A DNA stretch of 1,956 nucleotides from Escherichia coli (lineage in GTDB: Bacteria > Pseudomonadota > Gammaproteobacteria > Enterobacterales > Enterobacteriaceae), in NCBI RefSeq assembly GCF_003334765.1, contig NZ_QOWT01000076.1, one strand, 5' to 3'. Positions 1 to 1,956 of this stretch are shown here, one piece after another. The translations under genes and the position numbers were made by a program. Numbering within the stretch: the first letter of the stretch is position 1; the number at the start of each line of letters is the position of its first letter. Below the pieces are notes generated by a model. It made no database searches. It was not told where the DNA came from and saw only the letters and a list, made by a program, of their open reading frames with translations.

Positions 1-533
1 TTCTGGCAACCCATCGCATCAGTTGTGATGATTTTTCCTTTAATATCCAGCATGTTAAGAAGTTCAGGGATAGCTGTGATCTCATTGGATTTCTTATCCG
101 TCTTGATCTGCCCGATGACCAGACTGTGCATTGTTGAGAACGCACTAATGACATGAATCGCTCCCCTGCGGCGACTCTTGTCATAAGAGTGCCGGAGCGT
201 TTTTCCATCAATTGCAATGACGTCTTTATCATTTGATGAATGGCAATCACGCATCCAGTTAATAAAGCACTCGTGAAATTTTGCAGGACTGATACAGGAT
301 ACAACTCTGGCAATAGTATCGTGAACAGGAATACCATTTTCAAAATCACCATATTGCTTCAAGAAATCGAGATGTGTTTCCCCGAAATCCTCTATATCTT
401 CCCAACTTTCTGCACCAGAAATAACGGCAAAAATAGTCAATAGTAGGATGCCTGACAATTTATGCTCTACTTTCCAGGCTTATCTGTAATCGGGAATAAT
501 AGAAATATGTTCCATCAATTTTTTAAGTTCCAT
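1..533 (-). pseudogene. ISAs1-family (H-repeat-associated type) transposase, N-terminal ~177 codons, 3'-partial (runs off the window start); interrupted by an in-frame TAA at codon 18
   Basis: Hand translation of the minus strand from the ATG at 531-533 gives MELKKLMEHISIIPDYR, then TAA (plus 480-482), then in the same frame [159 protein letters not shown], open to position 3. The pattern IxDxR...K.EHxLxxILLL..xAVISGA.xWxxIExFG ... GIPxHDTxxRV is the DDE_Tnp_1-associated N-terminal domain of ISAs1-family transposases. No minus-strand stop occurs in this frame between 479 and 1. Confidence 0.85.
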
Positions 534-544: not shown

Positions 545-758
545 ATTTATGTAAGGAGTATTTGATCATGTATAAGCTATGAAAAACAGCTTTAGGTAAT
601 AAGGAATATCTCAATTTTTAAACATAAAATGCGAATTATTTAGTACAAAAAAGTAGCGTTACGTGATCTTTCCCTGCAAATGGAACGCAAAATAAACACC
701 TATTCCATGAGTTATATAATTTTTCACAATGATTAATTTGTTTTCTCAGGAAGAGATT

Positions 759-1328
759 TTATTTCTCTTCACTACGAATTAGTTCATGCTGTATCTTTAT
801 TAAACATTCGTAAGACTCATTTTTGTTCGGGAGATGTGCTGTCATTCGAGCATAAGTTGGTTTCTCATCTTTAAAATATTTTACCATGATTGAATTATCA
901 AGGACTGCCAACAACTGAACTGGATCACTGCTCTTTTTTTGATAGATACCCGCTCTTATATAACTTCTAAACCGATCGCCGAGAAACGCCGTTTTTTCTG
1001 CTGTATTTATCAACTCCTGCAACGTTCCTTTGATGGCATGATTTTCATTAAGGCGTAGTGACCCGACGCGAATTAAGAGTCTCGCCCCGCTTGGTGTGAA
1101 TTTATTATTTTTACATGTACCCAGTTCTGTTTGCCAATAATACTCACCGATGTCCTCATTCTGATACCATCTCCACATGGCTTTATTATTTAAGACAGGA
1201 AACGCGGAAAAAATAGTACCCTTAGCGAAAATAGTAAAACAATCATGATCTTTAGCTTGTATTTCGCAATCAGCTATAACACCAAAACTAACAAATATCA
1301 TCAGCAAAAAGAACAAAACTCTTTTCAT
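759..1328 (-). CDS. Putative cognate immunity protein for the Rhs CT toxin; Sec-exported periplasmic protein (189 aa precursor)
   Basis: Track ORF 759..1328 (-). Its ATG (1326-1328) overlaps the toxin TGA (1325-1327) as ATGA. N-terminus [19 protein letters not shown]|DCEIQ has a basic n-region, a hydrophobic h-region and a V-I-A signal peptidase I site. An SD-like AGAGGAA lies 6 nt upstream. The gene is AT-rich (hand-sampled stretches about 28-43% GC). Position immediately 3' of a polymorphic toxin CT is the canonical immunity position. Confidence 0.75.
1272..1328 (-). other. Predicted Sec signal peptide of the immunity protein (19 aa, cleavage after VIA)
   Basis: [19 protein letters not shown] followed by DCEIQ. 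There is no lipobox: the residue before Cys is Asp, not G/A/S, so signal peptidase II processing is unlikely. Confidence 0.65.
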
Positions 1329-1956
1329 TTTCTTATTCCTCTCGATGTTCTCTGTTTCATCTTAGCTAAAATTTCACCCAAATCATCTATCCCTGCTGTT
1401 GCTGGCCCATCGGGTTTATTAATGTCTGGGAATAAATAGGGTTCTGCACAAGTATATCCTGGTGGTAATTGAGTTGTTGGCCAATTTGTCTGTGGCAGGT
1501 AATCACTTGCTGTCTTTGTATCCATCCCTGGATACTGGGAATCATCCTGTGGCGTACAAGTCAGATTTGGTTTTACCCACTTCCTGCAATACAGTGTGTA
1601 GTCGTAAGGGCTTAATGCTCTGAAGAATGTTTTGAAAACATTAGGCGCACTACTGGCCTGGTCAATAGGATATGGCAGTCTTAATTGTTTCGCTATGTCC
1701 GGCAATTTACTTGGATCGGGCGTAGGCGGTTTGTTGGGTCTCGCTCCATATCCGCCATTATTTAAGTGTCCATATTTTGATGCCAGTCCCATTGAATCTA
1801 TATACTGAACCGGATTCAGCGGATACTGATAAAAATTCCATCCCCCCTTCAGCCCAATCGGATCCTGAGTGATATACCTCCCCTGCAGCGGGTCATAATA
1901 GCGGTGGCGGTTGTAATACAGGCCGGACTCCTCATCATACTGCTGCCCCGGCAGGC
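1325..1956 (-). CDS. Rhs family (YD-repeat) protein, C-terminal fragment: end of the conserved core plus variable CT toxin domain; 5'-partial, continues beyond the window end
   Basis: The minus-strand frame of the 155-aa track ORF stays open from its Met (1790-1792) up to position 1954 with no stop. Hand translation of 1793-1954 gives [54 protein letters not shown], followed by [14 protein letters not shown]... This matches the hallmark end of the Rhs repeat-associated core ([12 protein letters not shown]...QDPIGL.GG.N.YQY..NP....D..GL). The Met at 1792 is therefore internal, not the true start. Stop TGA at 1325-1327. Confidence 0.9.
1328..1783 (-). other. Variable Rhs C-terminal toxin domain (152 aa) of unknown activity
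   Basis: Sequence after the GL junction: [152 protein letters not shown]. It sits exactly where Rhs CT toxins sit and is followed by a coupled small ORF. I see no HExxH, HxxxH or other canonical nuclease/peptidase motif, and the single His precedes all three Cys. Confidence 0.7.
1335..1341 (-). promoter_or_regulatory. Ribosome-binding site for the immunity gene
   Basis: Minus-strand AGAGGAA (plus-strand ttcctct at 1335-1341), 6 nt upstream of the ATG at 1328, located inside the 3' end of the toxin coding sequence. Confidence 0.5.
1784..1813 (-). other. Rhs core/CT junction motif (PxxxxDPxGL-type; here [10 protein letters not shown]), the predicted autoproteolytic demarcation site
   Basis: Ten codons, P(1811-1813) V Q Y I D S M G L(1784-1786), with the same spacing as the PxxxxDPxGL motif that ends Rhs cores, except that Ser replaces the Pro after Asp. 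Confidence 0.75.
1814..1956 (-). other. Conserved Rhs core terminal region (partial), relatively GC-rich
   Basis: Encodes ...[43 protein letters not shown]. Hand-counted GC for 1793-1956 is about 52% (86/164), clearly higher than the downstream CT and immunity sequence. Confidence 0.85.

Follow-up and report, generated by a model that had tools for sequence, protein, structure and literature searches.

The window analysed here is a 1,956-nucleotide (nt) stretch of Escherichia coli DNA (assembly GCF_003334765.1, contig NZ_QOWT01000076.1), in which the sequence encoding a toxin-type C-terminal domain (ybfO kind) of an Rhs protein and its downstream partner gene, ybfC, overlap by 4 nt: the stop codon of the first gene and the start codon of the second share ATGA (a -4 overlap). 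We define both open reading frames (ORFs) and the ybfC start codon, and find that the junction is conserved across homologous loci that pair the same two protein families and that YbfC begins with a signal-peptide-like N-terminus. The reading we favour, with a probability of roughly 60%, is that the toxin-ybfC junction was inherited across the ybfO/ybfC family, that translation of ybfC would be coupled to that of the putative toxin by termination-reinitiation, and that YbfC would be exported to the periplasm, where it could protect against toxin from sibling cells. All coding sequence in the window is on the minus strand and comprises, from right to left, the 3' end of an Rhs gene, ybfC and the start of an ISAs1 transposase. 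The features that bear on the junction are the following.

1954 (window edge) to TGA 1327-1325, minus strand: Rhs open frame, 210 codons including the stop, running off the right edge.
1784-1954, minus strand: conserved Rhs core (3' end), covering residues 1-57 of the open frame and closing with a version of the PxxxxDPxGL motif.
1328-1783, minus strand: variable C-terminal (toxin-type) domain of the ybfO kind, ~152 amino acids (aa), with the basic tail R-G-I-R-K.
1325-1328, minus strand: ATGA, in which the ybfC start ATG (1328-1326) overlaps the toxin stop TGA (1327-1325).
1336-1342, minus strand: Shine-Dalgarno-like AGAGGAA, made of the toxin codons Arg-Gly (AGA GGA) and the first A of ATA (Ile).
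1305-1344, minus strand: predicted RNA hairpin, with the Shine-Dalgarno sequence in the 5' arm (1344-1331), the 3' arm at 1318-1305 and the AUG in the loop.
759-1328, minus strand: ybfC, 189 codons plus stop, RefSeq name 'protein YbfC', the presumed cognate immunity protein.
1272-1328, minus strand: signal-peptide-like N-terminus of YbfC, 19 residues, followed by DCE.

Minus-strand positions 1344-1325 read CGAGAGGAATAAGAAAATGA. The ATGA is the genuine junction of an Rhs toxin tail (ybfO type) and ybfC and is already annotated: RefSeq places ybfO of MG1655 at 734220-735653 and ybfC at 735650-736219, which is the same 4-nt overlap. The initial annotation had put TGA at 1325-1327 and ATG at 1326-1328 with a shared ATGA between two ORFs, and this holds, on the minus strand, with a toxin-type Rhs C-terminal domain upstream and a conserved partner downstream. 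Its choice of start codon was also right. ATG 1328 is the earliest start codon following the in-frame stop, with no alternative ybfC start in frame upstream, and M1-K2 together with the signal-peptide-like N-terminus is present in all 21 full-length YbfC homologues aligned. The ybfC start codon at 1328 is secure. Met10 was ruled out as a start because the conserved signal peptide would be lost, and an unsupported plus-strand ORF across the junction (1245-1439, 64 aa) was set aside. ATGA alone is trivial, since an ORF that begins with ATG-A (here Met-Lys) automatically carries TGA in the +1 frame; the minus strand of the window holds 19 copies, where its composition predicts 12.3. What goes beyond the trivial is that this ATGA is conserved and joins two long ORFs.

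Homologous loci were gathered by a genome scan with the YbfC alignment and by exact-protein look-ups of YbfC homologues, and further loci by look-ups of distant toxin-domain homologues from an exhaustive HMMER search. Of 14 distinct toxin-linked junctions in homologous loci, 11 retain the -4 overlap, with protein identity as low as ~30%. In Phytobacter (L007), Citrobacter (L013 and L014) and Kluyvera (L015-L018), a ybfC homologue starts at the terminal ATGA of a full-length Rhs gene (1379-1392 aa), and the -4 overlap is also present in the distant pairs L019, L023, L024, L030 and L031, whose toxin domains are 29-46% and partners 21-33% identical to those of the window. The junction consensus, GGA nnn AGA AAA TGA, is almost invariant across homologues, and only its middle codon is free to vary (ATA, GTT, GGG, GTG, GCA or AGT). 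In the five closer lineages, 42% of the degenerate codons for invariant amino acids are identical, compared with all of the last four (R, G, R and K). One set of nucleotides therefore serves as both the ribosome-binding site of ybfC and the conserved R-G-x-R-K tail of the toxin. From these alignments the junction looks constrained, with the overlap itself not obligatory. In L024, the gene after the ybfC homologue (1387-1773) also begins with a 4-nt overlap. The short contigs L002 and L003 come from metagenome-assembled genomes labelled Flavobacterium psychrophilum and Candidatus Nanosynbacter; with 98-100% identity to E. coli ybfO-ybfC, they are probably mis-binned E. coli DNA.

The ybfC ribosome-binding site in the window consists of the last five codons of the toxin gene and the stop, AGA GGA ATA AGA AAA TGA (R-G-I-R-K-stop), with the Shine-Dalgarno motif within the last ~15 nt. 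The initial annotation had correctly located AGAGGAA inside the toxin coding sequence, but 7 nt (TAAGAAA) rather than 6 separate it from the ybfC ATG, the GAGG core lies 9 nt from the ATG, and the range given there (1325-1341) clips the first base of the motif. The predicted hairpin is common to the minimum free energy and centroid folds of 111 nt, and its 3' arm corresponds to ybfC codons 4-8, which are U-rich signal-peptide codons. Its local energy of -10.5 to -10.6 kcal/mol is reached by 0.2-1.3% of mononucleotide shuffles, and the predicted probability of an unpaired Shine-Dalgarno region is 0.01 for E. coli. An exact inverted-repeat search returned nothing; the hairpin depends on G-U pairs.

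No junction is commoner in E. coli than the -4 overlap, and distances of -8 to +6 are found in 707 of 2,987 unidirectional gene pairs there (PMC10666635). Of five native E. coli pairs with a -4 overlap and an internal Shine-Dalgarno sequence, four show termination-reinitiation coupling (PMC6728339), for which the upstream gene's last 15 nt are enough (PMC6728339, PMC10666635). By analogy with these pairs, translational coupling between the toxin and ybfC is plausible. The overlap shifts the odds of an interaction between the products only modestly: partners in a complex are encoded by 6.8% of distant pairs and by 30.4% of short-distance pairs, the other 69.6% of which encode no such partners (PMC10666635). 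We propose that a ribosome ending on the toxin gene would sit on the ybfC start and could reinitiate there, and that the moderate Shine-Dalgarno sequence would also let some ribosomes initiate independently. The two genes may be co-transcribed: (ybfOC) is given as one transcription unit (PMC3946193), and the junction has no room for a terminator or promoter. An internal promoter for immunity-only expression, raised as a possibility in the initial annotation, was sought; the one weak minus-strand site (1786-1757, 9/12) was rejected, since promoter-like sites in the window (9) are not in excess of shuffles (6.0 +/- 2.4).

An account that we consider possible, though on the unlikely side, is that ybfC is translated independently, by de novo loading of ribosomes on the internal Shine-Dalgarno sequence, with the overlap as a by-product of a compact operon. 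Several observations count against the favoured reading, and many of them suit independent initiation. All close homologues start with ATGAAA; a signal peptide beginning Met-Lys gives ATGA, and the toxin frame would stop at the first stop codon it meets. Three toxin-linked junctions in the family lack the -4 overlap, namely L021 (GTG start, -14), L029 (+1) and L032 (+26). Intact ybfC homologues exist without a toxin at L004 (1660), L005 (6001), L006 (222) and L023 (4404), where independent initiation must suffice if they are expressed. In most E. coli, including K-12, the upstream gene is an orphan that has lost its N-terminal part and carries a pseudogene annotation, and the first ATG of truncated ybfO has no Shine-Dalgarno sequence, so its translation may be weak. 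The Shine-Dalgarno duplex of ybfC with the 16S 3' end is moderate, at -6.0 kcal/mol, a value equalled at 7.9% of window positions. One of the five tested E. coli -4 pairs, bioBF, shows no coupling (PMC6728339), and a ribosome-profiling study cited in a Front Microbiol paper (PMC10666635) has de novo initiation dominating at overlapping pairs. In addition, the literature searched contained no experiment on the toxin domain/YbfC pair, and no known toxin/immunity family matches either protein. Independent initiation is disfavoured by the persistence of both the -4 arrangement and the GGA nnn AGA AAA TGA consensus to ~30% protein identity, by the coupling of the other four tested native pairs, by the predicted hairpin, which would hinder de novo loading, and by the weaker Shine-Dalgarno sequences of the toxin-less copies (-4.7, -5.0 and +2.2 kcal/mol). 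Reinitiation coupling at an inherited junction could also accommodate genomes with a truncated orphan: there, the overlap would be a relic of the full-length arrangement, and coupling would operate only as far as the orphan is translated.

Coupling might instead be strict and enforced by structure, the hairpin locking the Shine-Dalgarno sequence until it is opened by a ribosome finishing the toxin, which would leave orphan copies nearly silent. Such masking was proposed for E. coli pairs by Huber et al. (PMC6728339), and the energy of the hairpin and the predicted pairing of the Shine-Dalgarno sequence are in line with it. Comparable hairpins are present at L007, L013, L015 and, with different arms, L024, giving 5 of 11 overlap junctions with a hairpin, whereas the six junctions that lack either the -4 overlap or the toxin have none. 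However, we regard strict coupling as distinctly doubtful. The hairpin is missing from the other six overlap junctions, the difference between 5/11 and 0/6 is statistically unconvincing, and the 111-nt fold as a whole is not unusual (z = -1.22). Pairing of a purine-rich Shine-Dalgarno sequence with U-rich Phe/Leu codons of a signal peptide is an expected by-product in AT-rich genes; furthermore, the stem is rich in A-U and G-U pairs, and the shuffles with which it was compared were mononucleotide.

The upstream gene has the organization of an Rhs polymorphic module, with an Rhs core that closes with PxxxxDPxGL and, after it, a variable C-terminal domain. Searches of the open Rhs frame against Pfam and NCBIfam returned only the Rhs core (RHS_core and Rhs_assc_core on residues 1-57), and NCBIfam TIGR03696 scored 72.7 bits against a cut-off of 32.5 over residues 2-57. 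The toxin-type domain had no Pfam or NCBIfam match and no hit in a profile search of PDB sequences; its AF2 model is weak (pLDDT 61), and a Foldseek search of this model against the PDB gave nothing below E = 3. All homologues of the domain are Rhs C-termini. Their alignment indicated three conserved cysteines, of which two are invariant and the third almost so, and gave no catalytic motif that could be recognised. The domain has a proline-rich linker and a basic amphipathic C-terminal helix. The GC content falls in steps from the Rhs core (52%) through the C-terminal domain (43%) and ybfC (37%) to the spacer between ybfC and the transposase (28%); such a stepwise fall is a usual sign of a toxin/immunity cassette with a different origin from the conserved core.

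YbfC is probably an exported, disulfide-bonded periplasmic protein, judging from its signal-peptide-like N-terminus and covarying cysteines. It begins with MKR (two K/R), followed by a 12-residue window with a mean hydropathy of 3.05 and V-I-A at positions -3 to -1. All 16 YbfC-family members examined share an n-region with K/R, a hydrophobic h-region and, ahead of the mature part, small residues; A19 is nearly invariant, and the conserved N-terminus can be written as M-K-R, a hydrophobic stretch and A|xCE. Within the family, C30 and C175 do not vary and C21 and C72 occur only together, a pattern that suggests two disulfide bonds, predicted as C21-C72 and C30-C175, and a periplasmic location. 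The AF2 model of YbfC is a beta-sandwich (pLDDT 82; residues 1-18 below 50) whose fold matches are only generic or uncharacterised, with one AFDB relative named 'Periplasmic protein'. If exported, YbfC would not neutralise newly made toxin in the cytoplasm, and its co-expression would instead serve to guard cells against toxin that siblings deliver. The rationale in the initial annotation, a toxin/antitoxin-like pair that must be co-expressed, is therefore a poor fit to a protein that, with its 15 relatives, carries a signal-peptide-like N-terminus and conserved, covarying cysteines.

An immunity role for YbfC is suggested mainly by its genomic company. A YbfC-family gene lies directly downstream of the toxin domain in all 14 toxin-linked loci, every downstream protein matches the YbfC-family profile, and the identities of YbfC and the toxin domain fall together across loci. 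Tandem and stand-alone ybfC copies also occur (L014; L023:4404; L004-L006) and, by comparison with other systems, are typical of orphan immunity genes. The L014 locus has two ybfC-type genes in tandem (4590-5174 and 6001-6582), the first after an Rhs gene of full length and the second after a 118-codon remnant of the toxin frame. In L004-L006 (Citrobacter, Pseudocitrobacter and an Escherichia species), ybfC stands behind ISAs1 transposase remnants and retains only ~18 nt resembling a former toxin tail. Conserved adjacency, co-divergence and stand-alone copies weigh far more in favour of the immunity assignment than the overlap. The initial annotation had counted the overlap as strengthening this assignment, which it does only a little, because a -4 overlap is the commonest E. 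coli junction and does not mark out Rhs toxin-immunity pairs. The other Rhs junctions of K-12 are spaced at +20 (rhsA-yibA), -29 (rhsB-yhhH), -1 (rhsC-ybfB), +39 (rhsD-ybbC) and -17 (rhsE-ydcD); close spacing is usual in these pairs, and ATGA is not diagnostic. [quoted passage not shown] As far as can be judged from sequence, the ybfO-type domain and YbfC are an uncharacterised toxin/immunity-like pair, with a periplasm-acting Rhs toxin and its immunity protein the probable identities.

In K-12 MG1655 and strain ML35, the module is an orphan downstream of rhsC-ybfB. In E. coli HSP425 (L033, 8325-12524), a sequence 100% identical to the window stands after a full-length 1399-aa Rhs gene, as if recombination had joined an orphan module to the main rhs gene. 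Since the identical sequence is found in both contexts, the window fits either. Orphan Rhs C-terminal domains of Salmonella are described with an internal promoter (P2) 89 nt upstream of the sequence coding for the DPxGL motif and a CTG start, and the P2 promoter has been reported in E. coli too. By analogy, the P2 start site would fall near window position 1902. VgrG-type genes (Phage_GPD, Gp5_C) were found near homologous modules in L011, L012 and L019, and none in the window or the E. coli rhsC locus.

The module shares features with several known systems. Like the coupled -4 pairs (hyfHI, astDB and menDH; Huber et al. 2019, 2023), it has two genes on the same strand with a shared ATGA, a Shine-Dalgarno sequence in the upstream gene's last 15 nt and, in the E. 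coli version, a predicted local structure over it; unlike in those pairs, coupling is a prediction here, a complex of the two products in the cytoplasm is not expected, since YbfC seems to be exported, and in most E. coli genomes ybfO is a truncated orphan. The Rhs core running to a DPxGL-type motif, the variable C-terminal domain and the small cognate ORF are those of E. coli and Salmonella Rhs modules, in which orphan copies (in Salmonella, main and orphan rhs-CT/rhsI) likewise lie downstream of the main rhs gene and can be fused to it by recombination. Compared with other Rhs modules, in which the junction type varies, YbfC carries a putative signal peptide and no toxin family described so far includes the C-terminal domain. 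The putative Sec-type signal peptide and conserved cysteines of the immunity-like YbfC, which imply that it acts in the periplasm, recall the periplasm-acting T6SS pairs Tae/Tai and Tle/Tli, but there is no similarity of sequence or fold to these, and the toxin here is an Rhs-encapsulated C-terminal domain. Type II toxin-antitoxin operons also consist of two small, adjacent, co-directional and often overlapping genes, and Salmonella Rhs C-terminal domains and their immunity genes have been reported to behave like them (PMC7043789). In contrast, the module of the window has the toxin gene first, its partner is predicted to be exported, and no DNA-binding or labile-antitoxin features are evident.

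The overlap itself is ordinary, being of the commonest kind of E. coli operon junction and already present in the K-12 annotation. A periplasmic partner, if confirmed, would point to a periplasm-acting Rhs toxin, and the junction bears on the expression of orphan immunity genes, that is, on whether orphan modules are protective or a mere recombination reservoir. A much bolder possibility, which we consider improbable, is that the pair represents an undescribed family of periplasm-acting Rhs toxins with disulfide-bonded beta-sandwich immunity proteins, in which the R-G-x-R-K tail doubles as the ribosome-binding site, coupling in E. coli is made strict by the hairpin, and orphans would stay silent until fused to a main rhs gene, as in HSP425.

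The window as a whole is the E. coli ybfO-ybfC-ISAs1 module. In a megablast search of complete E. coli genomes, the whole window was matched at 100% identity, the features under the match being an RHS protein, 'ybfC: protein YbfC' and an ISAs1 family transposase, and at least 80% of the window was covered in 3,032 of 5,426 genomes. An Rfam search of the window gave no matches. Two further features lie downstream of ybfC.

1-533, minus strand: ISAs1-family (H-repeat) transposase pseudogene, 5' part, interrupted in frame by TAA at codon 18 (482-480).
557-585, minus strand: promoter-like TTTTCA-17-AATACT upstream of the transposase pseudogene, in the AT-rich spacer and outside the toxin/ybfC unit.

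RefSeq marks the transposase pseudogene with 'internal stop', and its K-12 counterpart is annotated as ybfQ and ybfL. The promoter-like sequence has one exact match in the window and none in 200 shuffles, and a genomic SELEX study gives the same two hexamers for the ybfC-ybfQ spacer (PMC3946193). A 7-bp inverted repeat (GAAGAGA ... TCTCTTC, 751-772), spotted by eye and unreported by the terminator scan, spans the ybfC stop codon; as no T run follows it on the coding strand, it is unlike an intrinsic terminator. The best promoter-like match of the window, TAAACA-16-TATAAT (10/12, 693-720, plus strand), would read rightward, antisense into the 3' end of ybfC.

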